Assembly: GCA_964371245.1 (NCBI GenBank)
Contig: CAYJKP010000002.1
Span: 257,469 to 321,468 of the forward strand
Reading direction: 5' to 3'
Source: an uncultured Gammaproteobacteria bacterium
GTDB lineage: Bacteria > Patescibacteriota > Patescibacteriia > JAHIZJ01
DNA length: 64,000 bases
In this document: positions 6,783-45,159 of the stretch, one piece after another
Numbering within the stretch: the stretch's first letter is position 1
Layout: each line of letters opens with the position of its first letter
Made by a program: the position numbers and the translations under genes
The notes under the pieces: generated by a model
What the model was told of the DNA's origin: nothing
What the model saw: the letters and a program-made list of their open reading frames with translations, nothing else
The model's database searches: none

Positions 6783-6839
6783 TGGTGCGCAACGTGGAAC
6801 GAAGTCAGAACTTGGATCCGCGATACGACCGAGTACTTT
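6783..6839. repeat. 57-bp imperfect direct repeat, copy 1 (4 mismatches vs copy 2)
   Basis: tggtgcgcaaNgtggNacgaagtcagaacttggatccgNgatacgacNgagtacttt also present at 8483..8539. Confidence 0.85.
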
Positions 6840-8482: not shown

Positions 8483-8539
8483 TGGTGCGCAAAGTGGGAC
8501 GAAGTCAGAACTTGGATCCGTGATACGACGGAGTACTTT
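8483..8539. repeat. 57-bp imperfect direct repeat, copy 2
   Basis: See 6783..6839; lies between the OLD nuclease stop and the XRE regulator start. Confidence 0.85.
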
Positions 8540-8666: not shown

Positions 8667-10529
8667 CTACTGCTCGAGTTTCTTCCCGATGGCCTCCAAC
8701 CAACCAACAACCTCCTTCTTCCCACCCCGTTCATCTATCCGCCCCGGCGTCATCGCGTCAACGGCCTCTGTATTCAGCCGTCGTTTTGCCTGGCACACCT
8801 TCTTACCCCGCACTTTCTCGGTCAGGTCGTTCCATGGGGTCTTATGCGGATCGGTCGCAGCGCTATGAGTGGCTTCCGCCACCAACTCTGGGACGTTGCA
8901 GTCGTCTGTCACAGTTACACAAACCGAGAGCTTTGCCTCTATCGCTTCAGCGTGGAGGTAGTTCTCAAGTTCTCGCTTGTTCGTAATGAATGCGATTGAT
9001 CCATCGCTACGCCCGTTCACGCTGTTTGCCTCGCCTTGGTATTTTGGTGGGTCATCTGATCCTCGATCGAACAAGTGGATTTCCGGTATTCCCAAGTTCC
9101 GCAGATAATGGGCGCGGACCCAATCGCGGAGGTTTTCCCCGCCGAGAGCAATGACCGCGATACGTGGATCATTCTCGATATCCGGCAACATAGGCGTTTC
9201 GGAACGGAGGCAGCGGCTCATGCGGGTAAGATGCTGGACATCGTTTGGTCCCTCTACACAGACAAGGACGCGAACGCGGCTGTCAGGGAGTACACCAAGG
9301 TCATCGGCCACTCGTCGATAGGTTGACTCATCGCCAACTTCGATCATGGTCGTGCCGTCGACCGTACGCGTAACGTGCCGAATGCTGCATACGGGAATGA
9401 GGCCCGCAAGTCCTGGGACGTGGGTCGTGAGGATCACCTGACATCCGTCGGTCGTTGCGAGATCCTGCAGAGCTTCAACAAGCATCTTCTGATTTTCAGG
9501 ATGCTGCGAGGCTTCAGGCTCCTCGATCGCATATATGATGCTCGCTTGTCCCTTCTCAAGTCGTCGGCGTTCTGCTTCGGCACGGAAGAAACTGAGCAGG
9601 ACGAGCCGACGAAGTCCGCTACCACGCTTATTCAGTGGAATACCATCATCGCTGTCGAGTGAAAGTTTGAAAATCGAATCCCACTTCGGTTCGTTCTTGA
9701 ACTTAGGTGTGAGAGCAGAGCCGAGTCTCGGGTCGAGCTCCTGGAGCTTCTTCAAAGTACGATCTGCTACTTTGAGAACGGAATCCTGCACCTTGGTCTT
9801 CACGCGTTCTAGGTCGGACATCATCTCCGCGACGGCCTGCTTGACAGCAACCTGCATGGGATCCTGGGCTTCCGTGTCCTCGTCTGTGCTTGGCCGATCC
9901 GCACGGAAAATCGCAAATGCGGGCAGCTGCTGGGAGAGCTGCTCCCATATTGCTTTGGCATCCTCCTTGTTGAGAGGGATCTCGGTCGGTTGAAGGCGCA
10001 GGTCTTCGATCGACGACCGGATGGCAGTCCGGAGGGCGGAGTTGCATCGAAGATCAACGTTGGATGTGCCCACCTTCAAATCCGAAGCACGCTTCTTCAG
10101 ATCGGTGTTCTTCAGAAGAAGGAGATCACCGGCACCCTGGGCGGTCGGGTGAAGTGCCGCGGCCCAGAACCCCCGGTCAGCCACCTTCCCGTCCTTACAC
10201 TCGAAAACCCTATGGATCTCAAGATCTCCATCCGCATTGAGAAGTAGCTCGGCTGAGAGCGTGGTCGTGGCTGTGGCATCGATCACCACCTTGTCGGGGA
10301 GCTCAGTAAAGATGCAGGCAATCCGAACCTCATGATCCGCCGCGTGGACACACTTGTCGCCAGCGTCAAGCTTCAGATTCGGAGCGCCCAAGAAAATTCC
10401 GATGGCGTCGAGGATGCTCGATTTACCAATGTCGTTCTTGCCCACGAGGGCGGTGAGGTCATCGATGGGTATTAGCGTATTGCCGCGATAACCGCGGAAG
10501 TTCTGTAGCTTTACGGCCTTTAATTTCAT
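8667..10529 (-). CDS. OLD-family ATP-dependent endonuclease (N-terminal ABC-type ATPase + C-terminal Toprim), stand-alone
   Basis: Walker A GKNDIGKSS, Walker B IIYAIEEPEASQHP, H-loop ILTTHVP; Toprim-like VLVCVEGPNDVQH ... AVIALGGEN ... LFDRGSDD. Confidence 0.7.
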   Translation of the reverse strand: MKLKAVKLQNFRGYRGNTLIPIDDLTALVGKNDIGKSSILDAIGIFLGAPNLKLDAGDKCVHAADHEVRIACIFTELPDKVVIDATATTTLSAELLLNADGDLEIHRVFECKDGKVADRGFWAAALHPTAQGAGDLLLLKNTDLKKRASDLKVGTSNVDLRCNSALRTAIRSSIEDLRLQPTEIPLNKEDAKAIWEQLSQQLPAFAIFRADRPSTDEDTEAQDPMQVAVKQAVAEMMSDLERVKTKVQDSVLKVADRTLKKLQELDPRLGSALTPKFKNEPKWDSIFKLSLDSDDGIPLNKRGSGLRRLVLLSFFRAEAERRRLEKGQASIIYAIEEPEASQHPENQKMLVEALQDLATTDGCQVILTTHVPGLAGLIPVCSIRHVTRTVDGTTMIEVGDESTYRRVADDLGVLPDSRVRVLVCVEGPNDVQHLTRMSRCLRSETPMLPDIENDPRIAVIALGGENLRDWVRAHYLRNLGIPEIHLFDRGSDDPPKYQGEANSVNGRSDGSIAFITNKRELENYLHAEAIEAKLSVCVTVTDDCNVPELVAEATHSAATDPHKTPWNDLTEKVRGKKVCQAKRRLNTEAVDAMTPGRIDERGGKKEVVGWLEAIGKKLEQ

Positions 10530-10684: not shown

Positions 10685-12634
10685 CTAGCGCAATACCACC
10701 TTGGTCCGTTCAAGAAAGGCTGCCAGTTTTGCCTTAAGCCGGCGATCGGTGGGTCGATGCCTGCTGCGCTCCCAATCCAGAACCGTGCTTGGATCAACCT
10801 CCAGCTGTCGGGCAATGTCCGCGTGGGAGAGGCCGAGCCGTCTTCGGGTCGCCCGGAGCTGCTCTCCAATCGTGGACCCGATCTCTGTAGGTTCGTAGCC
10901 TAGGAACCGAATCACTCCCGGGATCGCCCGGAGGTTTGGGGTAGCGGTTCCGACCTCCCAGTTATGGACCGTGGTCTTATCGACGCCGATCCGCAACGCA
11001 ACCTCCCGCTGGAGAAGTCCGAGGTCCAAGCGACGTTTTCGAACGTGGTCGCCGATCGACCGGAGTTCCGTAGGATACGCTCTATCAATGGGTTTCGGCG
11101 TTCGGAGCACGAGATCACAAAATGGCAACGCAGGGGTGACGTTGTGTTGCCCTTTTGTGACGACTTCCGAAGCCGAAGGGAGGTAGCAGAGGTGTATTTC
11201 GACGTCGCCTTTCCCAATCACGATCCGTTCGACGATGTGCTCCACGATCTGTCGCCGGTCTTCGACCGCCAGGGTGGACCATCGGGAATAGAGGTCTTTG
11301 GCCTCGGTCAGGATCTCATCTCGGGAGAGGTACTGGATCTTGAGGAAATCGACGTCTCCCTGGAGTTGTGGGAGCTCTTCCTCGATCTGCTTGAGACGCT
11401 CTTCGAGGGGGCGGTACTGCCTGCCGTACCCTTCGACGGTGATCGCGTCGCTCATATAGGCACGATGGACTTTATCCATCTCCCGGACGACTCGGTCCCG
11501 CTCGGTCTCCATGGTCTGGAGGGTCTCCTCCTTCGCTTTGATCTCCTGGTCGGCCTGGCCGAGGTGTGCCGCGATGTCCTCCGGGGAGAAGAAGAATCCC
11601 TTGAGCTGCTCCTCGAAGACGGTTTCGAGGTCCTCGATCGGGATCTTGTTGCGGCACTTCTGGCAGCCGTACTTTGTCGTCTTCGTGAGGACGTACATCT
11701 TCTGACCGCAGAAGCAGAAGACGAGACCGGCGAAGAGATGGACCGGCTTCTTCGCCTCGCGTTTGCCGTTCCGTCGCCGCTCATCGAGAATCGCGTTCGC
11801 CTGGAGCCAGATTTCTTCGGAGATGATTGGCTCGACTGGAGTTAGGACCCATTCATCCTGCGGCTTGAGCTTCCAGTTCTTCTTCTCGCCGAGGGACTTC
11901 GTGTAGTTCGCCCGGCGGATCCCCTTGGCCATCGGGTCCCGCAGAAGCCGGTCCACAGTTGTATCCGAGAACTTCGAGCCGTTCCGGGTCCGGTAGCCCT
12001 TCTCGTTCAGAAGCCGCGCTACGGCCTTCTTGCGTTTGTGCTCCAAGAAGAGTTCGTACATGAGCTTGCGGACCGGGGCTTCTTTCGGATCCGGGACGAG
12101 CTCCCGATTCTCCCATTGGTAGCCGAAGGGAGCGGCACCGCCGAGGGGCTTGCCGAGTTTCGCCCTGACGGGCACGGACGCCGCCACCCGTTCGGCGATC
12201 TCCTCCCGTTCCCACTGGGCCATCGCCGCGACGACCGTGAAGAAGAGCCGCCCAGCCGGGGTCGAAGTGTCGATCGCCTCCGAGAGGGAGATGAGGTCCG
12301 CCTCGTGATCCCGGAAGATGTCCGCGAACTCCAGAAGCTCTCGGGTGTTTCGGGCGAGCCGCGCGAGCTTCGAGAAGATGAGCGCCGTGATGTGACCACC
12401 TCGGATGTGCTCAAGCATTCGCTCGGTTTCGGGAAGCCCCATGACAGACTTTCCGGAGACCGCTTCGAGGTGGTAGACCTCGCGGACCCGCCAGCCTTTG
12501 GCCTCGGCATACATCCGCGCCCGCTTCTCATGATGTTCAGGACTTTCACCCCTCGCTTGGTCCTCGGTCGAGACGCGGATCCAGATCCCGACCTGCCTTT
12601 GAGTCTGCGGTTCTTCCTTTTGCTGCTTCTTCAT
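10685..12634 (-). CDS. large serine recombinase (resolvase/invertase catalytic domain + recombinase domain + zinc ribbon + coiled coil) fused to two C-terminal XRE HTH domains
   Basis: IWIRVSTEDQ catalytic Ser motif; CFCGQKMY...CQKCRNK zinc ribbon; C-terminal RKRRLDLGLLQREVALRIGVDKTTVHNWE and RRRLGLSHADIARQLEVDPSTVLDWE HTH repeats. Confidence 0.8.
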   Translation of the reverse strand: MKKQQKEEPQTQRQVGIWIRVSTEDQARGESPEHHEKRARMYAEAKGWRVREVYHLEAVSGKSVMGLPETERMLEHIRGGHITALIFSKLARLARNTRELLEFADIFRDHEADLISLSEAIDTSTPAGRLFFTVVAAMAQWEREEIAERVAASVPVRAKLGKPLGGAAPFGYQWENRELVPDPKEAPVRKLMYELFLEHKRKKAVARLLNEKGYRTRNGSKFSDTTVDRLLRDPMAKGIRRANYTKSLGEKKNWKLKPQDEWVLTPVEPIISEEIWLQANAILDERRRNGKREAKKPVHLFAGLVFCFCGQKMYVLTKTTKYGCQKCRNKIPIEDLETVFEEQLKGFFFSPEDIAAHLGQADQEIKAKEETLQTMETERDRVVREMDKVHRAYMSDAITVEGYGRQYRPLEERLKQIEEELPQLQGDVDFLKIQYLSRDEILTEAKDLYSRWSTLAVEDRRQIVEHIVERIVIGKGDVEIHLCYLPSASEVVTKGQHNVTPALPFCDLVLRTPKPIDRAYPTELRSIGDHVRKRRLDLGLLQREVALRIGVDKTTVHNWEVGTATPNLRAIPGVIRFLGYEPTEIGSTIGEQLRATRRRLGLSHADIARQLEVDPSTVLDWERSRHRPTDRRLKAKLAAFLERTKVVLR

Positions 12635-12644
12635 CGGACTACAC

Positions 12645-15600
12645 CTATTTCTTGTCGCCCTTCAGGCGTTTCATAGCCTTGGCGATCACCTGGGAGACCG
12701 CATCTCGTTTGGCGGTCTTGTCCTGCTCCGTAACCGACTTATACTTCACTTTCACTTTGTAACCGCGAACCGTCCCAGATGTGCTCGCGGCTTCAGCCTC
12801 GATTCCTTCGAGCACCGCGAACGCCTCCTCCGGAGTCGAGAAATGCACGCGCTTCAATTCATCTTCCGAGAGAGTATTCGCCGCGAGCTGTCTGATCTTG
12901 GTCAGCGCCTTCTTCTCGGATGACACGACCACGATTTGCTCGAATCCGGCCGCGAGGCACTTCTGTACATTCCCGAGTTCGTGGTCCGGTGTCGTCGTGA
13001 CCGCGATCTCGCAGGCGACAGATCGGTCGCCCTTCCGCAGGGCCACGTCCACGCTTCCGAGTCCGTCGAGGATCTTCTCCTCGATGGTTGCCCGCCACTC
13101 CCGAGACTCGGCCCAACGCTTCAGGAGTTCCTGCAGATACTTGTGCTGCTGACCACCCCGACCTGGAGTTGGTATAGCTGACGGCGGCAACTGGGGTGGC
13201 TCCGCCCGCTTCGGTCGTTCGGTACTGGTTGGCGTCGGGACCGGCGGGGAAGGTGCGAGGATAGTCGCGCTCTGCGGGACGGGCTCGGCAGGTCGGACCG
13301 GGACCCGGCCGGGAACGGAGCGCTGAAGGATCGCCTCGATCTCTTCCCGCCTCATCGCATACTTCTCGCGCGATTGGGAAATGACCGCATTCCTGCGGCT
13401 GCGAGCCTCTTGAGGATCGACCTCAGCAAGCCTCGGAGTATCGAGGTTGAAGTCGAATTCCGCCCGTTCGACCCTGGCGATGGCCTGGCCGATTCCGAGG
13501 TTCTGGAGGTCCTTGGCTTCATAGGAGGCGAAACCTTCATTGAGGGTACGGGCGTCCTGATCGCCCACCCGGAAACAGATCCTGGTATATGGATTCGACA
13601 GCACGGAGCTCAGAACCTCCGGGCTCTTGCTCCCGATTTGCCGGAGGTCCTGATGCGCCAGGACCAGACCCAGCCGGTACTTGCGCGCACCCGAAAGGAT
13701 CTGCTCCATCGTGGGCGTGACGAAGTTCTGAAATTCGTCGATGTAGACGTAGAATGGCCGGCGTTCAGCTTCAGCCACCTCCTGGCGGCTCATCGCTATC
13801 TGCTGAAGTTTGGAAACGAGGAGACTGCCAAGAAGATGCGCGTTCTCCTCGCCAATCGCACCTTGGGAGAGCCGGGCGAGGAGGATCTTCCCCTCATCCA
13901 TCATCCGGCGGAAGTCGAGCCGGTCATCCTTCTGCGCGACCATATATCGGATGAGTTTGGGTCGGAGAAACGTGTCGAGACGGGTGAGGATCGACGCCTG
14001 AGGATTCCCTTTGAGGAGCTGGAACTCCTTCTGCCAGTAGTACACGACGTCCGGATCACGGACGGTTGCGAGGAATTCGTCACGGAAACTCTTCTCCACG
14101 AGGAACCGGCGAAGATCGACGAGAGTGCCGCCCCGGTCGCTTTCGAGGAAGGCGAGGATCGCGTTCCCCAGAACCGAGGTCATCTGATCGCCCCACGAGG
14201 TGGAGAGCCTGCGGAAGACAGCGGCAAGATCGGAGGAGAGAAGCGTCTTTTCGAGCTCGGAGTGCGCCGAGAGTATGTTGAATCCTACCGAGTATTCGGT
14301 ATCGGCGGGATCGAAGAGGATGACGTCATCGATCCGCTCTTCCGGCACTCTCTCCAGGATCTGGTCGATGAGGTCCCCGTGCGGGTCTAGGACGGCGACA
14401 CCCTGGCCCGTCTTCAGATCCTGGAGGATGAGATTCAGAAGGAGCGTGGACTTGCCGGTGCCCGACGCACCGATGACGTACATGTGTCGGGACCGTTGAT
14501 CGGGAGTGAGTGCAACCTCCACGGTCTTTCCGGCATGAGCGTTTATGCCGAGAAGGAGCCCGGAACCTGTTGCGATCGCCGGCGCAGCCCGCGTCTTCCG
14601 TTGCTCGCGCTTCAGTTTCTCGACGCGGACCGAGGCCGAAGGCGGGTGAACCAAGGAGACGAGCTCCTCCGTGTTCAGAATCATTCCGCTCCGGCGGGAT
14701 CGCCGAAGAATGAAATCCTCCATGTGATCGGTGTTCTCGTACCCGTCGTTCGATAGTGGGATGAGCTCGTTTCCGGCCGGATTCCCGAAGGTCTTGAGGC
14801 TTCCACCGATGGCCCGGGCGAATTCCCAGACCCGTCCCGGATCGGGACTGGTGACTCCGAGCCTGACCACAGAGGCGAAGAGAGGGTGCGCAACCTTCGC
14901 CTTGGCCGCCGCCGCGATCTCGGGTGCATCGAAGAAGAAGGGGTTCCCCTCATCGTCCAGGGCCGAGTTCATGATGCTCTCGGCCCATGCATGCCGGACC
15001 GGCTGGAAGAGGATCTGCAGGACGGCGATCTCGCCCTCCTCGAGATCGGAAAGGGCCGACGTGACTCCGATCAAGGGGTCGATGTCGAAACCCTTGAAGG
15101 TCCGGAGCGGCAGCATGAATTCCCTGGAGAGCCCGAAGTCCACGATGATCGTCTGAGCTCCCTCAAGCTCGGCCCACTGGGACAGTAGGAATTCGGGTTC
15201 GCTGGTGATGACCACTTCGGGGAAGTGGCCTTTGAGCTGCTGGGAGATCTTGGAGGCGTCCTGTTCCCGCACCGCGACCTGGATTGTGATGGAATCCGGG
15301 AGGCCGATGACCTCATAGGAGAGCGGCCCCACGGCGACGGGAAGACTGCGCAGGAACTGCTCGACTGCTTCCCGGGCGACCTTGAACGGGGGTGGAACGG
15401 AGAGCCGCAACTCGGCGATCGGGAACTCATCCTCCAGTGCATCAGGTTCGGGCTCACGCACGTCGGCGATTGGCGCGTCGTCTGTCGGGGAGGTTCGTGG
15501 CTGACCCGTTACCAGGCTCCGAAGTCCGTCGGTGAGATTGCTGAGCAGGGTTGGCCTGCGGCCGTCATCGACCTTGGATCGGATCGGTGGGACCCGGTGC

Positions 15601-15779
15601 ATCCGAAATGGAGCGAACGGCGGTTCCAGCTCGACCGGATATGGAAAGACCTGCCAGCCCCGGCCGCGCTTTTCCCACGTGTAGAACTGTGCGGTAAGGC
15701 GCTCAATCTGAGTCGGGGGACCTCCCAGGACGGAGGTCTCTGCCTTCTCCCAGGGAATCAGATCCCGATCGTCTTCCAT
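12645..15779 (-). CDS. large FtsK/HerA/T4CP-like P-loop ATPase with unknown N-terminal region and possible C-terminal nuclease-like domain
   Basis: Walker A GASGTGKST, VLDPHGDL (DPKGD-like), Walker B YIDEFQNF, ARKYRLGLVLAHQ arginine-finger region typical of TraD/VirD4/HerA; C-terminal RSVACEIAVTTTPDHELGN... may be a PD-(D/E)xK-like fold. Confidence 0.55.
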   Translation of the reverse strand: MEDDRDLIPWEKAETSVLGGPPTQIERLTAQFYTWEKRGRGWQVFPYPVELEPPFAPFRMHRVPPIRSKVDDGRRPTLLSNLTDGLRSLVTGQPRTSPTDDAPIADVREPEPDALEDEFPIAELRLSVPPPFKVAREAVEQFLRSLPVAVGPLSYEVIGLPDSITIQVAVREQDASKISQQLKGHFPEVVITSEPEFLLSQWAELEGAQTIIVDFGLSREFMLPLRTFKGFDIDPLIGVTSALSDLEEGEIAVLQILFQPVRHAWAESIMNSALDDEGNPFFFDAPEIAAAAKAKVAHPLFASVVRLGVTSPDPGRVWEFARAIGGSLKTFGNPAGNELIPLSNDGYENTDHMEDFILRRSRRSGMILNTEELVSLVHPPSASVRVEKLKREQRKTRAAPAIATGSGLLLGINAHAGKTVEVALTPDQRSRHMYVIGASGTGKSTLLLNLILQDLKTGQGVAVLDPHGDLIDQILERVPEERIDDVILFDPADTEYSVGFNILSAHSELEKTLLSSDLAAVFRRLSTSWGDQMTSVLGNAILAFLESDRGGTLVDLRRFLVEKSFRDEFLATVRDPDVVYYWQKEFQLLKGNPQASILTRLDTFLRPKLIRYMVAQKDDRLDFRRMMDEGKILLARLSQGAIGEENAHLLGSLLVSKLQQIAMSRQEVAEAERRPFYVYIDEFQNFVTPTMEQILSGARKYRLGLVLAHQDLRQIGSKSPEVLSSVLSNPYTRICFRVGDQDARTLNEGFASYEAKDLQNLGIGQAIARVERAEFDFNLDTPRLAEVDPQEARSRRNAVISQSREKYAMRREEIEAILQRSVPGRVPVRPAEPVPQSATILAPSPPVPTPTSTERPKRAEPPQLPPSAIPTPGRGGQQHKYLQELLKRWAESREWRATIEEKILDGLGSVDVALRKGDRSVACEIAVTTTPDHELGNVQKCLAAGFEQIVVVSSEKKALTKIRQLAANTLSEDELKRVHFSTPEEAFAVLEGIEAEAASTSGTVRGYKVKVKYKSVTEQDKTAKRDAVSQVIAKAMKRLKGDKK

Positions 15780-15787
15780 GGTTCACC

Positions 15788-16498
15788 CTAGCCACGCAGA
15801 AAATCCCGCATGATTGGCTTCTTCTCTTCGTCCGTCAGAGCCCGCAGCCCCTTCGCCGTTGTGAGGCCATCGATGACCTCGGTCACCGCGGAGTGCATCG
15901 CCGACTGGAACATGAGCATCGTGTCGATGCGATAGTAGGTAAGCGGACGGAAGAACCGCTCATAGAGCGGCCCGAGGAGCGGGACCGCCAGGATTGGATC
16001 ATCGGCATCCATATCGAGTGCCTTGGTAGCGGCTCGATAGACGTACCAAACGACGATGAGGGTCACAAGCGTGATGAGAAGTCGTATCAGGAAGTACGGG
16101 CCACGGATGTGTTGACCGTGCCGGCCGAGTTGCATGAGAATATTCACGATTCCGCTGTGGACCGCGTAGTAGGCGACGAGAGTACCGAGGAGGATCGCCC
16201 AGCAAAGCCATCTTGGCGGGCGCTTCTCTCCCACCCACCACGAAAAAAAGAACCCCGTCCCGAAGGGCGCGGCGCAGAGGTCGAAGGCGAGCTTCTGCCT
16301 GGTGACGCGAAGGTACTCCCGCTTGGCGGAGAGGACCCCGCCCTCGTGCCAGTCCACCCGTGACGTGGAGATCCCGGGGGTCTGACGGCGTTGGAGCGCC
16401 GCCTCGACGGAGGTATAGAAGTCGAGCGCGGACGTCTGGAAGTTGTCGTAGGGCTTTTGCCAATGCGAGAACAGATTGGCCAACAAGGGCTTAGGCAT
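15788..16498 (-). CDS. hypothetical integral membrane protein, translationally coupled to the downstream ATPase
   Basis: 236 aa, about 4 TM helices; stop 8 nt before the ATPase start. Confidence 0.45.
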   Translation of the reverse strand: MPKPLLANLFSHWQKPYDNFQTSALDFYTSVEAALQRRQTPGISTSRVDWHEGGVLSAKREYLRVTRQKLAFDLCAAPFGTGFFFSWWVGEKRPPRWLCWAILLGTLVAYYAVHSGIVNILMQLGRHGQHIRGPYFLIRLLITLVTLIVVWYVYRAATKALDMDADDPILAVPLLGPLYERFFRPLTYYRIDTMLMFQSAMHSAVTEVIDGLTTAKGLRALTDEEKKPIMRDFLRG

Positions 16499-16579: not shown

Positions 16580-19500
16580 CTACGACTCCGCCCAGCCCTG
16601 GGAGAGTACTTCCGCCTGCTCAAGGACAGTTTGTGTCGCCTTCTCTTGCTTGTCCGGTGGGTAGCCATATTTGCGCAGGATGCGCTTGACGATCGTTCGC
16701 AGGTGCGCGCGCACATTCTCCCGCTGGGTCCAGTCGATCGTTACGTTGCTCCGAACGGAATCCACCAGTTCGCGGGCAATCGTGCGGAGCGTTTCGTCTC
16801 CAAGCACTTGCACAGCACTATCATTGACGCCGAGCGCATCGTAGAACGCTACTTCGTCCTCGTTGAGTCCGAGCTTCTCCCCGCGCTGGTTCGCCTTGCG
16901 CATCTCCTTGGCAAGACCGATCAGCTCCTCAATGACTTGAGCTGTTTCGATGGCGCGATTTTGGTAGCGTCGGATGGACTGCTCAAGTAGCTCAGCGAAG
17001 GAACGGGCCTGAACAACGTTCTTCAGGCGCCGGCTTCGAATCTCCCCGCTGAGCAGCTTGCGCAGCAGTTCGACGGCGAGGTTCTTCTGCGGCATCCCCC
17101 GGATCTCGGTCAAGAACTCGTCCGAGAGGATTGAGATGTCGGGCTTCTTGAGACCCGCGGCGGCGAAAATGTCCACGACTTCGTCGGAGGCGACCGCCTC
17201 GGAGACGATCTGTCGAATCGCGTGCTCGATCTCCTCGGGGGACTTGCGGTCGCCGGGCACGTTCTTCACCAGCACCGAGCGCACGGCTTGGAAGAATCCC
17301 ACATCGTCGCGGATTCGGATAGACTCCAAGTGCGGAACAGCCAGGGCAAACGCCGCCGACAGTTCGCCTACGGCTTGAACAAGCCGATTCTTGCCGTCCG
17401 GCTGGGTCAGAACGTGCTCCTGTGCGATAGGCAGCAGGCTGAGACGATCCGCCGGCTTGCCGTCCTTCCATTTCGTCCACTCAAAGCCGTGGAAGATACC
17501 GCAGCAGATCTCATACTTCTCAAGCATGACGGAGACGGCCTCACTCTGGTCAATCGTAGTGTCACCCTTGCCGCCACTCTCGGTGTAGTTTGCGAGTGCC
17601 TTGCGGAGCTCATCAGCGAGCCCGAGGTAGTCGACGACCAAACCGCCCGGCTTGTCCTTGAAGACACGGTTGACACGGGCAATCGCCTGCATGAGTCCGT
17701 GGCCCTGCATCGGCTTGTCGATATACATAGTGTGGAGGCAAGGCGCGTCGAATCCGGTCAGCCACATGTCGCGCACGATCACGATCTTGAACGAGTCCGC
17801 CGGATTCTTGAACCGCTCCGCCAGCGTCTCACGTCGGGCTTTGTTACGGATGTGCTCCTGCCAGTCTTCCGGGTCGGCGGCCGCACCGGTCATCACGACC
17901 TTTACCACACCCTTGTCGTCGTCCTCGTTGCGCCAATTGGGCCGCAGAGCGACGATGGCGTCGTAGAGTTCGACGCAGATGCGCCGGCTCATGCACACCA
18001 CCATAGCCTTGCCGTCAATTGCGGACAGGCGTTGCTCGAAGTGACTTATGAGATCCGCAGCGATGATATTGATTCGCTTCTCGGTGCCGACCAATGCCTC
18101 GAGTTGGGCCCACCTCGTCTTCAGCTTCTCCTTGTGTGAAACCTCCTCGCCTTCAGTGGCCTCCTCGAATGCCGCATCAAGCACAGCATGTTGGCTGTTC
18201 CTCAATTCGAGCTTGGCGAGACGGCTTTCGTAGTAGATCGGCACAGTCGCACCGTCTTGGACCGCACGCTGGATGTCATAGACGGAGATGTAGTCGCCGA
18301 ACACTGCCCGTGTGTTCTTGTCCGTCAGCTCGATCGGCGTGCCGGTGAATCCTATGAATGAGGCGTTAGGCAGGGCGTCGCGCATGTGCCGCGCGAACCC
18401 GTCGATAAAGTCGTACTGGCTCCGGTGTGCTTCGTCGGCGATAACAACGACATTTCGCCGGTCTGAGAGCAGCGGGTGCATGTCCCCGCGTTCTTCGGGG
18501 AAGAATTTCTGAATCGTAGTAAAAATCACACCCCCAGCGTCGCGGTGCAGTAGCTGTCGCAGCTGAGAGCGGCTTTCGGCCTGATCGGGAGGCTGACGTA
18601 AAAGGTCTCTGCAGCGGGAGAAGGTTCCGAAGAGTTGCCCGTCCAAGTCATTCCGATCAGTGAGGACCACGATGGTTGGATTACGCATTTCCGGCTGAAG
18701 CACAACCCTGCCCGCATAGAAAGCCATGGTCAGGCTCTTGCCGGACCCTTGAGTGTGCCAGACGACGCCGATCCGACGATCACCGGGTTTCGCCTGGTTC
18801 GATTCTTGGTCGCGGCGCTCGTCTCGACCGTCGCCGATCCGGTCGGAACTCTCAGCTATAGCCGCGCGGAGGGTCTCCTCCACTGCTACGTTGACCGCAT
18901 GGTACTGGTGGTAACCAGCCATCTTCTTTAGCAGCAGCCCGCCGCCCATGTCCTCGAACACGAGAAAGTACCTGATGAGATCGAGAAATCGACGCTTCTC
19001 GAAAATGCCTTCGATGACCACCTGGGCCTCCGGTAGACGCCGATCGGCAAGCTCCCCTCCGGTGATCGTGCGCCAGGGCATGAACCACTCGCGTTCAGCC
19101 GTAAGAGTCCCCACTCGGGCCTGGACGCCATCCGAGATGATGAGTGCTTCGTTGAAGGCAAATAGAGACGGGATTTCCCGCTTATATGTTTGAAACTGAC
19201 GAAAGGCAGACCAGATTGTTGCCATCTCATCTGCCGGATTCTTGAGTTCGATCGCAGCAAGCGGGAGGCCGTTGACGAACACGACGACATCGGGTCGCCG
19301 GTTGTTCCGGTTCTCCATCACAGTGAACTGATTAACAACGAGCCAATCGTTGTTGTTGGGATTCATGTAGTCAAGAAGCTGCGCTTGCGCACCTGCGATC
19401 GTCCCATCTGGACGGCGGTACTCGACTGTGACGCCGTCGACAAGCATCAAGTGTGCGGCATGGTTAGTTGTGACCAGCAGAGGCGACGTTATCCGAGTTA

Positions 19501-19720
19501 CCTTCCGAAATGCTTCATCGACCGCGTCGCCCGGGAGATCGGGGTTCAGTCGCGTCAGCGCGGAGCGAAGGCGATCCTCAAGGATGACCTGGCTGTAATC
19601 GGACCTTTCAGAGCTCGGTTCCCCCGGGGCCATGTCTGGACCGAATCGCGTGCCGTAGCCAAGCCCATCAAACCAGATCAGCACGGCGTCCTCTACTTCA
19701 GATTCGATGAATTTCGTCAT
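16580..19720 (-). CDS. hsdR: type I restriction enzyme R subunit HsdR
   Basis: HsdR N-terminal domain ([22 protein letters not shown]), SF2 helicase motifs ([15 protein letters not shown]), C-terminal T1RH-like region. Confidence 0.9.
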
Positions 19721-21671
19721 ACTATGCGCTTTATCTCATAAATCTCTTGGTTGTCAGGACCCTCGTCCAGAGCAAGACCTGTGGCCGCTGCTTCGCGTTT
19801 GATCAACCATCTGAGGGAGTAGTTCCGTACTCTTTCATACAGACCTTTGACCGTCGACCCAACTACGAGATTGGCCAGAGAAACAAGAACAAGAACACCA
19901 GAACCACAGGTGAGTACCCATCCGACTAAGACATTACTTGAACGAAGACCGAGACCCACGGCAAAGCCAGCTATCAGCAGCATTCCAATAAAGCCAGACA
20001 CTAACCTTGCGCAGTTCCTCGCTCTTCTCCAACACCGCCAATAGAGCCGCTCTTGCACCTGCTTATTTCCTGCAAGTGCAGATACCAGGGCCTCCCGGGT
20101 TCTCTTATGCTCGGTCTCCTCCGCGGTGAGCTTTTCAGTCTCCTCTCTTTTCATCTCGGTTGACACCCTGCGAAGTGTCTCAGCGACTGTTTCCTCAGTC
20201 AAGGCGTCTTCGTCTCCGAGCGTCAGGCGCATGAGCTCTTCTTGTGCAAGCGCGCTACTCCGCAGTAGTTGATGGTCGCGCGCCGTTATCTTCCCTAGTT
20301 TCTGCAGCCTGTTGATCTCGGCCAGGTACTTGCAGAGGAGCTCCTTTGATGGTTGCAGTGCCGCATACGAAAACGCCAGGATTTCAGTAGTTGGAAGAGT
20401 CGGAGCACCCATTGGCGCTTTGAGCCATGCCATGTTTGCCAAGCTGAAGTCGGTGATTACGCTCGACACCTCACGCGATTCCTCATGCCTCTGCCCGTAT
20501 TCCCACGCCGCCCGAGCAAAACCAGAATTGCTGGTCACAAACACCGCTCGGCATTTTTCGACCGTGGCCGGCGCCGTGTGCGCTCTCAGTGCGTAGATAC
20601 TACGCACTGAGTTGATATCATAGTCTTTGGCTCGCGGATTGAAATACGACACTTCGTCGTCGAGGACCTTCTCAAATATTCTTTCGTCGATCTGGAAATC
20701 AGGTATGTACTGCGGTGTGTCCTTCACGTCGATTTGCGCTTCTGCAAGCTTCTCATCTACCTGCCCCGCCATCAGAAGGAGGTCCGACCTAGTGGTGCCG
20801 TTTCGCCGTGCTTCCGTGACAATGGCCCCGCGGCCGGCCTCTCCATCCACGTGGTCCGCGGCACCTTTCAGCACGCGTACAAGTTCATCTCGCGAGTGTG
20901 CGAACGCAGCCACCGTAGCCCCGAGGTTACCAAGCAACGAGACCAGGTCTGCAACCGAAGCCCTTCGCGGTTCGCCTTCGAGGCCAAGTCGGCGAACCAG
21001 TAGCGGGGTATCAAGGTAGAATGTCACGCCGCTATATGACATTGGCGCGTTCTGCAGGTCTGGGCATAGTAAGCCGTTGGCGAGCATGTTCCCTTGCACC
21101 ATGATCATGAAGCTCTCAAAACGCTCTGGGTCGCGGTCCTGGATGTGTAAGACATACTGGCTGACTAAGATGATATCGCTCTCTCTCTTGACCTCCACGG
21201 TAGGAATCGCTGACCCTTGTAGATACGCGCGGAGACATACGATGCTGGACTGACCCAGGAACGTGCATATGGCAGTCACAGCGTCATCGATAATGGTGAC
21301 CTCTCTAGGCGTGCTTCTCGAGAACTCCATCAGACCGGACACCACTGCTTTGATATGGCGATCGGCTTGGCTCTTCTTTGCAAGGATACCGGGATCAGGC
21401 AAGATACCTGCAATGTGATAGACTCCCGCTTCCTTTCGTAATGGGTACGCCCGGGAGAGACGTCTAAGCACTACTTGTATGGCGCGTTCTGGAATTGCCA
21501 GCCCATACTGCGTACGGATGTGATCTCTAACACCCCGGTCCGTTATCGGGTCGGGCTTGTGGTCGACAAGGACCTGTAGAATAAACGGGCGAAGATAGTC
21601 AAGATAGTCCCTACCGTGGTCAACGTTGACTTTCAGCATCGCCAAACTGGTAAGGGTTGCGGTTGTGGACA

Positions 21672-21672
<1 letters not shown>
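19717..21672 (-). CDS. unknown 651-aa protein embedded in the type I R-M operon, C-terminal double TM anchor
   Basis: Overlaps the hsdS stop by 1 nt and the hsdR start by 4 nt; no P-loop; two C-terminal TM helices; occupies the PrrC/RloC position. Confidence 0.5.
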
Positions 21673-22956
<1,284 letters not shown>

Positions 22957-22973
<17 letters not shown>

Positions 22974-24507
22974 GTTTCTTTAGATTGGCAGCGATTGCGG
23001 CATCGAGGGTTGCTGTGTCTTTCTGCTGCTCTCGCAATGCCGTGGTGAGCCGTTTTATCTTTTCGTTGAACGGTTCTCCATCGTCCAACAGCTCTTCAGC
23101 GCCGACGTAGCGACCAGGTGTGAGCACGTGACCGCGCTTCCGGATCTCTTCCAGGTTCGCGCTTTTGCAGAACCCCAGGAGGTCTCCGTACTTCTTCTTT
23201 ACATCCTTGTCTCCGCGCCAAGCATGATAGGTGTCCGCGACCCTTGCGATGTCTTCGGACGTGAGCTCTCGATGCACGCGGTCGATCATCGTTCCAACCT
23301 CTCGAGCATCGATGAAGAGCACCTCGCCCCGTCGGTTACGGAAGCGACCGTTTTCTCTGTTCCGCGTCAGGAACCAAAGGCACACTGGGATTTGCGTGGA
23401 ATAGAAGAGCTGCCCAGGAAGGGCGATCATGCAATCGACGAGATCGGCCTCGATAATCGCTTTGCGGATCTCACCCTCCCCTGACTGGTTCGATGACATG
23501 GAGCCATTGGCGAGCACAAAGCCGGCGAGTCCAGTGGGCGCAAGATGGTAAATGAAATGCTGGACCCAGGCGAAGTTCGCGTTGCCAGGAGGCGGGATGC
23601 CGTACTTCCAGCGCTTGTCGTCTTTGAGGAGATCCCCGCGCCAGTCGCTGTCATTGAAAGGAGGGTTGGCAAGGACGTAGTCGACCTTAAGGTCCGGGTG
23701 CCGGTCGTTATGGAAGCTGTCGCCCTGAGTGATGTTCCCTTCGATCCCGCGAATCGCGAGGTTCATCTTGCAGAGCCGCCATGTAGTGTAGTTCGACTCC
23801 TGGCCAAAAACGCTGATTTGCCCGATGCGGCCACCATGTTCCTCCATAAATCGCTCGGATTGGATGAACATGCCGCCGGAGCCGCAGCAGGGGTCGTAGA
23901 CGCGGCCCTTGTAGGGTGCGAGCATGGCGACGAGGAGCTGAACGACGCACCGCGGCGTATAGAATTGACCACCCTTTTTCCCCTCGGCGCTTGCGAAACG
24001 AGAAAGGAAGTATTCATAGACTCGACCGAGTATGTCCTTCGAGCGGTTCTCTTTGTCACCGAGTCCGAGGTTCGTGATGAGGTCGATGAGTTGGCCAAGT
24101 CGTTGCTTGTCGAGCCCGGGTCGCGCATAGTCCTTCGGGAGCACACCCTTTAGACTTGGGTTGTCTCGCTCGATCGCGGTCATCGCGTCGTCAACAATCT
24201 TGCCGATTGCCGGCTGTTTTGCGGTGTCCTTGAGCTTGGACCATCGCGCTTCCTCCGGAACCCAAAAGACATTCGCCGCACGATACTCATCCGGATCCTC
24301 GGGATCAGCCCCCTGGCGACGTTCCTGGTCAAGCTGAAGACGACGCTCCTCGAAAGCGTCGGAGATGTATTTGAGGAAGATGAGACCGAGGACGACGTGT
24401 TTGTACTCCGCTGCGTCCATGTTGTTGCGGAGGGCATCAGCCGTAGCCCAGAGTTCAGCCTCGAAGCCGATATTGCCTCCGTTGTTTTTTGCTTTCGTTC
24501 GAGCCAT
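22957..24507 (-). CDS. hsdM: type I R-M DNA methyltransferase subunit HsdM (N6-adenine)
   Basis: HsdM_N motif ([36 protein letters not shown]), catalytic NPPF (VLANPPFN); start set at ATG 24507, excluding a spurious 120-aa N-terminal extension. Confidence 0.85.
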
Positions 24508-24713
24508 GGATTCACTCCGTATTCTGGGTGCGTCCTTTGTTAGTAGCACGGAAATTGGGAGGGCCTCCGCACCCTCCGGCATATTAGTTAATGTATTGCA
24601 GCCCAACGTATTAGCGCCCTTTACAGTACAAGATTCCGGGCCATTCGTCAAGCTAAACTCCTGCTGTAAGTTACGAAGCCGGAGACTGCACATGGGGCAG
24701 TCTCCGGCTGAGA

Positions 24714-25442
24714 TCAGAGCGCGAGCGCGCTCCGAAAGGTGCTGGAGAGCCTGAGCCCAGAGTCCATTTGGATCCTGGGGCTTCTGGATTTCTGGACCTC
24801 GGTGAAGGCATTGAAGAGCGACCAGGCAGTTCGAGGAATGAACTCTCCGTGAGTCGGTTTCTCCCATGCTTCGATCACCTTCGGCAGGTTCGAGGCCGGG
24901 AGGACGTTCCTCCGAACGGCTTCGACCATGAGATGGTCGGCCATCTCTGGCGAGAGACCCCGTTCCTTCATTGCCGCGATCTCTCCGTGGATCCGGCTCT
25001 GCATCGACGAGACCTTCGAGAGCATCCGGTAGATCAGGTCGGGGAGATCCCGGAACACGTTGATCGTGTGCTTCCGCGCCGCGCCGACTTCGCCCGAGAA
25101 GGCAAGGTTGTCACAGCAGAAGACTCGGCTTCCCGCGACCAGACTCACCGAGAGGGACCGGTCGTAGGAGTTGCGAAGCCCGATGGCGAGCGCGTAGTCG
25201 GGATGACCCCCACCGTTCGTACAGGTTAGGACCCCGAACATCTGGAGCCCTTCGTGCGCGAGGCCGAACCGCTGCTCTGTGATCGTGAGCCCGAAGCGCG
25301 GAATGTGCAGCTCGACCTCCTCGACGAACCGGGCATAGGGTACCGGCACGTACGAATCGGTCTCCTCGGGAACCGCGACGGCTGCGAGATCGACTTTGGT
25401 CGCCTCCCAGCCGCCACGATGCAGGACAAGCTGACCGGACAT
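24714..25442 (-). CDS. hypothetical protein (mobile-element associated; possibly DUF932-like)
   Basis: 242 aa, no clear motif; located between the recombination module and the R-M operon. Confidence 0.3.
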
Positions 25443-25997: not shown

Positions 25998-26759
25998 TCA
26001 TTCCCCGCGCCACGATTGGCAATGGGCAAAGAACTCGCACTCCGAACACTTCCAGGAGGGGTTCGGGAAGAAGGAGCTACCACGGATCGCGAGGGCGACG
26101 CTCTCAATCAAGCGCGCGGTCCAGGCGAGATCCTCGACCGTGCGAGAAGCGGGAAGGCGTTCCAGTCGCGGGACCTTGGTCTTGAGGAGGGCGTCGATGC
26201 GGAGGGGTGGGATCTGGCCCGTCGCAAGGAAGCGGACAAGCGCATACGTTGAGAGCTGGAGATGCCGTTCGAGGCTCCCGGTGTCGAAGGTCCGAGCGGC
26301 GGTCTTGAGTTCCACGAGCGTGCCGTCCGTCTCGATGAGGTCAATGACGCCGCGCAGGCGCACGTCGAGCACTTCACCCGTCTCGGGATCGACGAGGTCG
26401 ATCTCGAATCGGTCCTCGATGAGCTGCGGCAGCGTCCCGTCGACCTGCTCGGCATAGAGGCGGACGAGATCCCGCCCCTTCTCCCCGAGGATCTCTTTCG
26501 ATTCCTTCGCGGGGAAGACCACGGGCTCGAGGTTCTGGGCGAACCAGTCCGCGTCGAAGACCTTGACCACCGCCTCCGGGTCGGGCGTGCGCCCGGCGAA
26601 CCGTTCCTTCTGGAACCACTCGATGGCGGCGTGAACCGACGATCCGAACGCGAGCGCGGCGGCTCGCCACGGCGGCGGGATCCGGTCGATGTACTGGAAG
26701 CGGTACTTCAGGGGGCAGAAGAGATACGACTGGACCCGGCTAACGCTGAGCGGCTCCAT
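25998..26759 (-). CDS. PD-(D/E)XK exonuclease, Cas4/RecB-like with C-terminal 4Fe-4S cysteine cluster
   Basis: D...ELK core (DLIETDGTLVELKT); N-terminal C (YLFCPLKY) plus C-terminal WKCSECEFFAHC Cys cluster, as in the Cas4/AddB nuclease family. Confidence 0.65.
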   Translation of the reverse strand: MEPLSVSRVQSYLFCPLKYRFQYIDRIPPPWRAAALAFGSSVHAAIEWFQKERFAGRTPDPEAVVKVFDADWFAQNLEPVVFPAKESKEILGEKGRDLVRLYAEQVDGTLPQLIEDRFEIDLVDPETGEVLDVRLRGVIDLIETDGTLVELKTAARTFDTGSLERHLQLSTYALVRFLATGQIPPLRIDALLKTKVPRLERLPASRTVEDLAWTARLIESVALAIRGSSFFPNPSWKCSECEFFAHCQSWRGE

Positions 26760-30624: not shown

Positions 30625-32187
30625 ATGCCTTCCTACGTCATCTATGCCAGAAAATCCACGGAGTCCGAAGACCGCCAGGTGCTTTCTATCGACTCCCAGA
30701 TCCGGGAGCTGCAATCGCAAACTGCTCGGCGCGGTCTTCGTGTTGCCGAAGTTCTGACGGAGTCGCATTCCGCGAAGGCCCCCGGGCGTCCGGTATTTGG
30801 GGCACTCATGCGGCGCGTCCGGCGCGGCGAGATTCGTGGGATCGTCTGCTGGAAGATGGATCGGCTGGCGCGCAATCACCTCGATACCGGGTCGATTCTC
30901 CAGGCACTTGCCGACGGCCAGTTACAGGAGGTCATCACTTCCGATCGCACCTATACCCGAGACGGCAATGACCGGTTCATGGGTTCCTTCGAGTTCGGCA
31001 TGGCGACGAAATTCATCGATGACCTGCGAGCGAACGTCCGGCGGGGCAACCGGGCGCGGTTTCGACGTGGATGGCCAAACTATGTGCCGCCACTCGGTTA
31101 TCTAAATGACAAGGCCACCAAGACGATCATCAAGGATCCGAAACGCTTCGACCTCGTCCGAAGAATGTGGGAGCTACTTCTGACCGGTGCCTACCGCCCG
31201 GATCAGATCTTGGGAATCGCCAACGAGAAGTGGGGATTCCGGACGCGCAAGTTCAAGCGCTACGGCGATTGTCCCCTTCCGCGAAAGATACTCTATCGCA
31301 TATTTGGAAATCCGTTTTACATGGGGCTCATCCGCCTGCGGTCCGGCGAGACGTTCGCTGGTGCCTTTCCTCCGATGGTTAGCCGCCAGGAGTTCGACCG
31401 CGCTCAGGAAATCCTTGGCCGTGCTGGGCGGCCCCGTCCCAAGCGCCATGAGTTTCCCTACACCGGGATCATCCGATGCGGCGGCTGTGGCGGCGCGATC
31501 ACAGGTGAAGAACACTACAAGAGTTCCGGCAGACGCTACGCCTACTACCACTGCTCACGCCGACGGGTCGGAACCGACTGCCACGAACCCTCGGTCTCCG
31601 AGCGGGACCTTGAAGCCCAGATCCTCCACGTCTTGGAACGGCTCACAATTCCGGAACGCGTCATCACTTGGATCCTGAAGCAAGTCACGCAATCCTTCCA
31701 ACTCGAAGACGATCGTCGGCAGGAAGCCCAGCGATCTCTCGCGGACTCCCTTGCCTCCGTTCAGCGGGAGCAGGAGAACCTCGTCACAATGCGCCTTCGG
31801 GACATGGTCACCGACGACATCTATACGGCCCGGAAGCACGAGATCGACGAGCGCAGGGCGCGATTGGAGGCCCAAATCGCCGCGCCTCTCCGCTCGCCGG
31901 AGGAGATTCTTCAGTATACGAACACGACCTTCGCATTCGCTTCGAAGGCGGTTGATGTATTCCGCTCAGGAACGGGAGTTCAGCGGCGGATGATCTTGGA
32001 AGCCGTAGGTTTGAACTCGGAGCTGCGAGCCAGAAAACTGCTAATGCAACTGAAGAATCCGTTCCAGATGATCGCTGATGCAGGCTCTAGTAGCGACTGG
32101 TGCCCAGGGCGGGACTTGAACCCGCACCCGCTTTCGCGGCTAGGCCCTCAACCTAGTGTGTATGCCAATTCCACCACCTGGGCGTAG
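30625..32187 (+). CDS. large serine recombinase (integrase); computed ORF reads through the 3' end of tRNA-Leu
   Basis: YVIYARKSTESEDRQ catalytic Ser motif; recombinase domain; CGGCGGAI...YYHCSRRR zinc ribbon; coiled-coil C-terminus; last ~30 codons overlap the tRNA. Confidence 0.8.
   Translation: MPSYVIYARKSTESEDRQVLSIDSQIRELQSQTARRGLRVAEVLTESHSAKAPGRPVFGALMRRVRRGEIRGIVCWKMDRLARNHLDTGSILQALADGQLQEVITSDRTYTRDGNDRFMGSFEFGMATKFIDDLRANVRRGNRARFRRGWPNYVPPLGYLNDKATKTIIKDPKRFDLVRRMWELLLTGAYRPDQILGIANEKWGFRTRKFKRYGDCPLPRKILYRIFGNPFYMGLIRLRSGETFAGAFPPMVSRQEFDRAQEILGRAGRPRPKRHEFPYTGIIRCGGCGGAITGEEHYKSSGRRYAYYHCSRRRVGTDCHEPSVSERDLEAQILHVLERLTIPERVITWILKQVTQSFQLEDDRRQEAQRSLADSLASVQREQENLVTMRLRDMVTDDIYTARKHEIDERRARLEAQIAAPLRSPEEILQYTNTTFAFASKAVDVFRSGTGVQRRMILEAVGLNSELRARKLLMQLKNPFQMIADAGSSSDWCPGRDLNPHPLSRLGPQPSVYANSTTWA
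32098..32183 (-). tRNA. tRNA-Leu(GAG), long variable arm
   Basis: GCCCAGGTGGTGGAATTGGCATA...CTAGGTTGAGGGCCTAG...GGTTCAAGTCC...CCTGGGCACCA. Confidence 0.8.
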
Positions 32188-44883: not shown

Positions 44884-45110
44884 CAAAAAACCCGCGTTCC
44901 TCGATCGGGACGGGGCGAAAAAGACGCCCTTTCTTTCGACCGAAGATTGGCTGCACGAGGGTATCCTGACTTATGGAGGATTGGCTTAACGCGCCTTCCC
45001 GCACCAGTCGAACGAGGCTCGGCTGACGCAGTGGTTTTGGCGTCTTGCTTCTCCACATACAGTGGCGGGACCGTGCTGGATTCTCACCAGCTTCCCCTGT
45101 TAAATTGTGA
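44884..45110 (-). promoter_or_regulatory. cobalamin (AdoCbl) riboswitch with terminator expression platform
   Basis: Minus strand GGAAGCTGGTGAGAATCCAGCACGGTCCCGCCACTGT plus B12 box AAGTCAGGATACCCTCG, then GC hairpin and T-run before the DUF4430 start. Confidence 0.65.
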
Positions 45111-45159
45111 ATCAGCTCTTCGTTATCAGAATAGCGCGTCGGCGCGCCACTGTCAATTG

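Follow-up and report, generated by a model that had tools for sequence, protein, structure and literature searches.

Type I restriction-modification (R-M) operons are known to host second-line defences, among them PrrC, RloC, TgvAB and a series of candidates listed in PADLOC, of which few have been characterised. The locus described here lies within a stretch of 64,000 nucleotides of contig CAYJKP010000002.1, from an uncultured Gammaproteobacteria bacterium (that whole stretch is hereafter termed 'the window'), and raises the question of what is encoded by a further gene, here called X, that occupies the space between hsdS and hsdR of one such operon. In a preliminary description of this DNA, the product of X was suggested to be a membrane-anchored effector of unknown fold, guarded by the surrounding R-M system and plausibly acting as its partner in abortive infection. 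The analysis reported here leads to a modified answer, namely that X is an autonomous, membrane-anchored putative nuclease effector, directed against phages or other mobile elements and often riding in type I R-M operons, a reading to which we assign a probability of about 0.5.

A coupled gene within a type I operon

On the minus strand of the window the genes hsdM, hsdS, X and hsdR follow one another in that order and form one operon, in which the three hsd genes are all present, intact and co-oriented, with family matches (in Pfam, PADLOC and NCBIfam) that extend over their full length. The methyltransferase subunit hsdM (22957..24507, minus strand) matches Pfam HsdM_N (1e-28) and N6_Mtase (6e-111); the specificity subunit hsdS (21672..22967, minus strand; 431 amino acids from its ATG) matches Methylase_S in two stretches (2.5e-22) and PADLOC Specificity_I (5e-85); and the restriction and translocase subunit hsdR (16580..19720, minus strand; 1046 amino acids) matches Pfam HSDR_N, SWI2_SNF2, T1R_D3-like and T1RH-like_C (1e-137), as well as TIGR00348 (1e-186) and, over residues 2-1041, PADLOC REase_I. 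Gene X itself, an open reading frame (ORF) of 651 amino acids with an ATG start (19717..21672), is located where it had been placed in the preliminary description, which did not state that it lies on the minus strand, and has no significant match in the family libraries.

All of the junctions within this operon overlap. That between hsdS and X (GGAGGGACGTCTAATG) reads TAATG, in which the last A of the hsdS stop codon TAA is also the first letter of the X start codon (an overlap of 1 nucleotide), and a GGAGGG Shine-Dalgarno sequence lies 8 nucleotides upstream of that ATG. The junction between X and hsdR reads ATGA, in which the hsdR ATG and the X TGA overlap by 4 nucleotides, and the reading frames of hsdM and hsdS are likewise overlapping (ATGGCGAGTGA). 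Both overlaps of X, and the translational coupling within hsdM-hsdS-X-hsdR that had been proposed from them, are thus borne out by the sequence, and the slot that X occupies is the one held by prrC, between hsdS and hsdR, in the prr locus of Escherichia coli. On account of this coupling, synthesis of X should accompany that of the R-M subunits and be proportionate to it.

That X is a real gene is evident from its 1,193 homologs in a word-indexed search and from 3,199 representative clusters in an exhaustive one (described below). An identical X protein is also encoded on 20 metagenome contigs, where an independent gene call gave the same boundaries, including those of a 431-amino-acid hsdS.

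Two further observations concern the hsd genes themselves. One of those 20 contigs (L086) carries a net deletion of 68 nucleotides in hsdR (L086 6231-6240, approximately 18364-18442 of the window), which splits hsdR into two ORFs and leaves hsdM, hsdS and X intact; read from its sequence, it is a population variant in which restriction would be lost and X retained. At the opposite end of the operon, the mechanically defined hsdM ORF reaches 24867 and is thus open for 120 codons upstream of 24507, and in one automated gene call, made elsewhere, the start was set at the ATG at 24693. The ATG at 24507 (MARTKAK...) is favoured as the likely start, since position 4 of the PADLOC MTase_I model aligns at ORF residue 131, near which the HsdM_N domain also begins.

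Domain architecture and membrane anchor

The fold of X was examined using an AlphaFold (AF2) model of residues 1-545, built from 70 diverse sequences, with a mean predicted local distance difference test score (pLDDT) of 87 and a predicted template modelling score (pTM) of 0.82; a first, full-length model, built from 34 close homologs, reached a pLDDT of 64 and was left out of the fold search. In the model that was used, residues 1-90 (21403..21672, minus strand) form a three-helix bundle with a beta-hairpin wing that is superposable on known winged helix-turn-helix (wHTH) domains, and resembles those of the Fur/MarR/BlaI type. This domain is followed by an all-helical domain, residues 96-210 (21043..21387, minus strand), with helices at 96-118, 128-152, 165-180 and 182-202 and a conserved GHMLANALLCPDL block. 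Residues 215-425 (20398..21030, minus strand) were assigned, by the model and by Foldseek, to an alpha/beta domain of PIN/VapC type, with strands at 217-220, 253-257, 315-317, 376-380 and 405-407 and a helical insert of approximately 60 residues (318-375). The preliminary description of X as a protein of unknown fold therefore no longer applies, at the level of these predictions.

Beyond the alpha/beta domain, the model places a small helical domain at residues 428-485 (20218..20391, minus strand; helices 428-439, 443-459, 464-471 and 474-485), and then a long, charged, coiled-coil-like helix, or stalk, at residues 493-553 (20014..20196, minus strand), which spans 493-544 in the second model, continues to 573 in the first, and leads into the membrane. 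The two C-terminal transmembrane (TM) helices that had been noted previously are found at residues 556-607 (19852..20007, minus strand), as hydrophobic segments at approximately 557-575 and 581-599 with Kyte-Doolittle peaks of 2.15 and 2.23. Small residues are abundant in both (G569, G573, G575 and G584, the first three forming a G569-x3-G573-x-G575 pattern in the first helix), and a poorly conserved loop of approximately 5 residues, RSSNV, joins the two. The segment preceding the first TM helix contains 6 Lys and Arg versus 1 Asp and Glu, and the tail following the second contains 8 versus 7; because both flanks of the hairpin are rich in Arg and Lys, the body of the protein is predicted to be cytoplasmic, with both termini of the hairpin on the inside. 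Every one of 247 full-length homologs possesses one to three C-terminal hydrophobic segments, and 222 of them possess two. Sequence conservation is poor over the C-terminal 100 residues and reaches its minimum for X in the TM region.

A DNA-binding head, a PIN-type nuclease domain and a membrane anchor within a single chain form a combination that is unreported in the defence libraries and the literature searched; the latter yielded no described defence gene of wHTH-PIN-TM architecture (that is, with a two-helix TM hairpin), nor any such protein in R-M loci.

The PIN-like domain and its candidate active site

The alpha/beta domain was modelled as a three-layer alpha/beta/alpha structure, with a parallel sheet, that is superposable on VapC/PIN structures. 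In Foldseek the PIN protein PAE2754 was the match of highest probability (0.9), with Exo1, a FEN-type nuclease, also listed; the same search of the PDB returned no match at E < 1e-3, and a search of viral structures returned no match. Membership of the domain in the PIN-like fold is supported by this model.

Conservation of the domain is concentrated on residues that suggest catalysis. Among those invariant in 70 sequences, down to 33% identity, are D221, H259, E263, E330, D352, R363 and N382, and D297 is conserved in at least 90% of the same sequences. In the model, D221 is found at the end of strand 1 (FYLDT), E263 in the helix after strand 2, D297 at the start of the helix that follows the 'ARRxGxT' helix, and N382 after strand 4 (VTSN), while E330 and D352 lie in the insert of approximately 60 residues. 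By secondary structure, the positions of D221, E263, D297 and N382 would correspond to those of the acidic residues of PIN domains; together with E330 and D352 these four would constitute a candidate active site, which is likely to be live.

Two independent hhalign runs, each of them non-significant, pair the motifs of X colinearly with the region of VapC D7 and E42, and both also pair the helix that precedes the catalytic Asp of VapC; the first of these employed an approximate sequence of Shigella VapC and is a lead only, and the second employed a VapC alignment built from a neighbouring gene at one of the loci surveyed (L049), with a probability of 0.5%. D352 had been the first choice for the third PIN acid and was dropped after the latter alignment, in which D297 looked the better equivalent. 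A match of the insert region to histone H4 (E 0.2) was set aside as due to chance.

Family size, distribution and library searches

The homologs of X constitute a large family that is unnamed and horizontally spread. The best 120 of the 1,193 word-indexed homologs are 61-73% identical to X, are approximately 638 amino acids in length, and are all either unnamed or 'hypothetical'. An exhaustive HMMER search of representatives clustered at 50% identity returned 3,199 clusters at E <= 1e-3 and 1,153 at E <= 1e-30, with matches that mostly span residues 1 to approximately 530. The phyla in which homologs occur include Chloroflexota, Acidobacteriota, Planctomycetota, Nitrospirota and Zixibacteria; the distribution is patchy, with identities of 60-70% between distant phyla.

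More distant homologs (22-28% identity over residues of approximately 15-509) are plasmid-borne in Enterococcus faecium, Klebsiella, Pantoea, Arthrobacter, Hymenobacter and Sporosarcina. On the E. faecium plasmid pNY2032-2 (L081 6965-8923, WP_010706231.1) and the K. quasipneumoniae plasmid pKA1-2 (L082 4707-6674, WP_258336611.1) the homolog is a lone gene situated between insertion sequence (IS) elements; these two proteins, of 652-655 amino acids and 22-25% identity, are annotated as 'hypothetical', and both plasmids are mobilizable resistance plasmids of clinical species. In the Arthrobacter plasmid record the match is flanked by hypothetical genes alone.

X itself has no significant match in Pfam, NCBIfam, PADLOC, PHROGs or the protein sequences of the PDB, and no homolog was found in phage genomes by tblastn. 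Several of the exclusions made in the preliminary description are upheld by these searches and by the sequence. X contains no Walker A motif of the form [AG]x4GK[ST], and hence no P-loop; it resembles neither PrrC nor RloC, given that absence and the lack of any PADLOC or NCBIfam match; and HEPN, TIR and SIR2 signatures were found neither by family hidden Markov models nor by fold. Pfam and NCBIfam gave no clear match to a housekeeping family. The family is strongly conserved, is distributed across many bacterial phyla and on plasmids of clinical species, and is found in no family or defence library searched.

Genomic context of homologs

The surroundings of X were surveyed by an alignment-based scan of one genome per species, which recovered 80 loci (a single-sequence scan of the genome contigs with X gave no match); HsdM, HsdS and HsdR of the window served as tblastn probes, and neighbouring ORFs were clustered. 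Linkage was counted in 59 species-level loci flanked by 3 kb or more on each side. Of these, 24 are linked to hsd genes, and 17 of the 24 display the complete M-S-X-R order. Since this linkage recurs, it does not hold that the homologs are never associated with R-M or defence loci, an outcome that the preliminary description had named as contrary to its proposal.

The sole recurrent neighbours of X are hsdS at the position immediately before it, hsdR downstream and hsdM upstream, all of them co-oriented with X. The distance from the hsdS stop to the X start is between -7 and +17 nucleotides in 19 of the 24 junctions measured, and that from X to hsdR ranges from -7 to +4320 nucleotides; additional genes, where present, always follow X, in the space before hsdR, and none separates hsdS from X (L004, L042, L016, L045, L049, L051 and L021). 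The conserved coupling of X is to hsdS, not to hsdR, and its placement directly after hsdS is unusually strict. The cargo between X and hsdR is typical of defence or mobile genes, and comprises GmrSD (GmrSD_N) on two occasions, a reverse transcriptase, a DUF6602 protein, a VapC of 139 amino acids, a DEAD helicase, and an IS1595 transposase together with a P63C protein.

At three loci (L020, L034 and L057) an hsdS-X pair is present with no hsdM or hsdR detected by tblastn within 10 kb; two of these, L034 and L057, are copies of the pair within one Dehalococcoidia genome. In a second recurrent layout, seen at L010 (464-8866) and L029 (4932-13976), X follows a reverse transcriptase and a large N6/N4 methylase of type III-like character, and precedes a helicase of the UvrD/NERD type. 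X also adjoins a DUF1156 methylase at one locus (L048) and an SNF2/NOV_C helicase at another (L038).

Approximately 60% of the homologs lack hsd genes within a distance of 10 kb and occur as single genes with heterogeneous neighbours, including integrases, transposases and housekeeping genes. Linked and unlinked copies are interleaved in a neighbour-joining tree, which implies that linkage to hsd has been gained or lost many times. The proposal that X is guarded by R-M is not supported; given these single genes and the plasmid copies between IS elements, X cannot depend upon a type I enzyme.

Proposed function and alternative explanations

In the reading that we prefer, the two-helix anchor would fix X to the cytoplasmic membrane on its inner face, and the wHTH and adjoining helical domains might recognise nucleic acid derived from an invader, or some other cue of infection. 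The PIN-like domain, acting as a metal-dependent nuclease, would then cleave either RNA (as VapC does) or incoming DNA, so that the invader would be blocked directly or the cell arrested in an abortive infection. Directly behind hsdS, as in the window and approximately 40% of related loci, X would add to restriction a further tier of immunity. According to Payne et al. (10.1101/2024.01.29.577857), defence functions are enriched among genes embedded in type I R-M systems, and genes that interrupt a type I R-M operon were experimentally proven, in the case of TgvAB, to be an independent and complementary defence system (PMC11411939). In light of this published enrichment a defence role for X is supported, but not proven.

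Several results weigh against this reading. The PIN assignment is one of modelled fold, with membership in the sequence family unsupported: hhalign of X against the VapC alignment gave the probability of 0.5% cited above, Pfam PIN and PIN_12 each matched 2 of 70 members at E of 0.011-0.025 (and X itself has no Pfam PIN match at E <= 1), and neither a profile of the domain nor phmmer found a PIN chain in the PDB. PADLOC-DB v2.0.0, a collection of anti-phage defence proteins both known and candidate, gave a PDC-S15 match for hsdR and no match for X or for ten divergent relatives within its family. Where hsd is absent (41 loci), the genes immediately next to X belong for the most part to housekeeping functions or mobile elements and not to recognised defence, and enrichment in defence islands is for that reason undemonstrated for the stand-alone copies. 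Finally, HEC-09, a protein of similar architecture (HTH and PIN-like), gave no protection in the sole test reported (10.1101/2024.01.29.577857).

Among the alternatives, the closest to the preliminary description is that X acts in the manner of PrrC, held inactive by contact with HsdS and HsdM or with the R2M2S complex, and becoming a suicide nuclease once an anti-restriction protein of a phage (Ocr, ArdA or an Stp-like protein) disables the type I enzyme. The prrC slot, the overlap of all junctions (which suggests stoichiometric co-production), the nearly always tight hsdS-X junction in other species (as compared with that of X and hsdR), and the existence of hsdS-X pairs without detectable hsdM or hsdR all point in this direction, but the majority of homologs without hsd genes, the lone plasmid copies and the lack of similarity to PrrC or RloC point away from it, and the interleaving of linked and unlinked copies leaves no dedicated clade of guards. 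The strictness of the hsdS-X junction lends this explanation some weight, which is weakened by the many hsd-free copies, and we consider it unlikely. A more elaborate version, in which the membrane-tethered wHTH-PIN nuclease would dock at the inner membrane on HsdS or the M2S methylase core, borrow its sequence specificity or its state of inhibition, and attack incoming nucleic acid where it enters or bring about cell death once phage anti-restriction proteins have neutralised the type I enzyme, would make X the founder of a new class of immune effector partnered with R-M, and would represent a guard mechanism unrelated to those of PrrC and RloC, with the hsdS-X overlap reflecting co-translational assembly of HsdS and X; we regard it as rather improbable. 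In a further alternative X would have no part in defence, and would instead serve as a membrane-tethered transcription regulator, as a localiser or regulator of the type I complex, or as an addiction toxin by which the island or plasmid is stabilised. Such roles would suit the Fur/MarR/BlaI-type wHTH domain and the presence of X in plasmids and islands, next to recombinases and IS elements, and weak matches to R-M controllers (PADLOC Control_protein, E 0.046; the Csp231I C protein in the PDB, E 1.2) could be cited in their favour, yet those matches are non-significant and fall on residues 288-348, which are PIN helices in the model rather than the HTH, for which reason they were rejected. The stand-alone copies, moreover, have no operon to regulate, and the invariant acidic constellation argues for catalysis, such that an accessory role of this kind appears quite improbable.

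The membrane hairpin might, alternatively, be the effector itself, with the stalk and TM helices oligomerising, once the cytoplasmic part has sensed its cue, into a depolarising pore or channel and the PIN-like domain acting as a sensor or being degenerate. Effectors with two TM helices are a common design in abortive infection; a long helix leading to a TM hairpin with a short loop resembles the CorA/MCU-type architecture, the glycine pattern of the first TM helix would fit, and Pfam matches to DUF2207_C (27 of 70 members), MCU (8 of 70), CorA (2 of 70) and DUF4231 (2 of 70) were obtained, with a best E of 1.4e-4. These matches are, however, all below threshold; no significant match of CorA, MCU or SLATT type was found, and the RSSNV loop carries no conserved GMN or DIME motif. 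Since conservation is lowest in the hairpin, and the candidate catalytic residues are invariant, a generic anchor attached to an active enzyme fits better, and a pore is a doubtful proposition. The possibility that X is a housekeeping membrane protein whose proximity to R-M is coincidental is suggested by some stand-alone copies beside ribonucleotide reductase or recA; against it stand the patchy occurrence across phyla at 60-70% identity, the variable contexts, the plasmid copies, the recurring adjacency to hsdS and the lack of a housekeeping family match, and it can be considered very improbable indeed.

If X is a defence gene, as we favour, it would represent a widespread single-gene system, and a tractable model for the coupling of restriction enzymes to membrane-localised or abortive effectors. 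If it is not, a large orphan family will still have been named, with a fold assignment that can be tested.

The surrounding island

The operon lies within a GC-rich region of the window (approximately 10000-32200), where GC content is 0.56-0.64 versus approximately 0.50-0.52 elsewhere, and which is probably an integrated mobile or defence island. A tRNA-Leu(GAG) gene (32098-32183) is located at its end, and its other genes include a large serine recombinase with HTH domains (10685-12634, minus strand), a TrwB/HerA-like ATPase of 1044 amino acids (12645-15779, minus strand), a DUF932 protein (24714-25442, minus strand) and a PD-(D/E)XK nuclease (25998-26759, minus strand). Directly downstream of hsdR is an ORF of 236 amino acids (15788-16498, minus strand) without a Pfam match, which may belong to the hsdR transcription unit.

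Just outside the low-coordinate edge of the island is an AAA_15 ATPase (8667-10529, minus strand). A direct repeat of 57 nucleotides, 93% identical between its two copies (6783-6839 and 8483-8539, 1.7 kb apart), lies just upstream of the AAA_15 gene and downstream of genes for tRNA-Val and tRNA-Ala. A cobalamin riboswitch (Rfam RF00174, 73.9 bits) is present at 44939-45140 (minus strand).

Comparison with known systems

The arrangement most similar to that of X is found in the prr locus of E. coli (prrA-prrB-prrC-prrD), where PrrC is likewise the product of a single accessory gene between hsdS and hsdR; both proteins are nucleases (predicted, in the case of X) without a role in restriction itself, and for both the suggested logic is a second line of defence tied to R-M. 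PrrC is a soluble protein with an ABC-type NTPase head that contains a P-loop, and a C-terminal anticodon-nuclease domain. X, in contrast, has no P-loop and no match to an ATPase family, displays a wHTH and a PIN-like fold in its model, and carries a membrane hairpin; models of PrrC and of anticodon nucleases gave no match, and PADLOC, the resource with which systems including PrrC were annotated by Payne et al. (10.1101/2024.01.29.577857), returned for X the non-significant Control_protein match alone. According to the same study, PrrC is almost exclusively embedded in R-M systems, whereas X is embedded in only approximately 40% of its loci.

RloC resembles X in that both are found inside type I R-M loci as well as alone, and in that both are long proteins with a coiled-coil element. 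It is a Rad50-like anticodon nuclease, named from R-linked ORFs of Campylobacter, in which a Walker A/B ATPase is split by a zinc-hook coiled coil and joined to an anticodon-nuclease domain. X possesses neither a P-loop ATPase head, nor a zinc hook, nor an anticodon-nuclease domain, and an NCBIfam Rad50 match (E 0.12; 10 bits versus a cut-off of 700) was discarded as coiled-coil noise.

The nearest structural relatives of X are the VapC/PIN toxins. VapC is a soluble toxin of approximately 135 amino acids that is neutralised by the antitoxin VapB; X differs from it as a multidomain membrane protein of 651 amino acids that lacks a partner gene and whose PIN core holds an insert of approximately 60 residues. 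In architecture its closest analogue is HEC-09, which combines an N-terminal HTH with a C-terminal PIN-like (NYN) domain and which, together with the PDC candidates of the same study (10.1101/2024.01.29.577857), was found, as X was, by its embedding within a multi-gene defence system; the section of that study consulted mentions no TM hairpin for HEC-09, and no PADLOC model matches X or its ten divergent relatives. TgvAB, which also interrupts a type I R-M operon, is a modification-dependent restriction system made up of two proteins and belonging to the GmrSD family, unrelated to X in sequence and fold (PMC11411939). The kind to which X would belong, that of defence-type nucleases carried within type I R-M operons, is already known, and X is not categorically new in that respect; what it adds to these systems is a new domain architecture and a large unannotated family.

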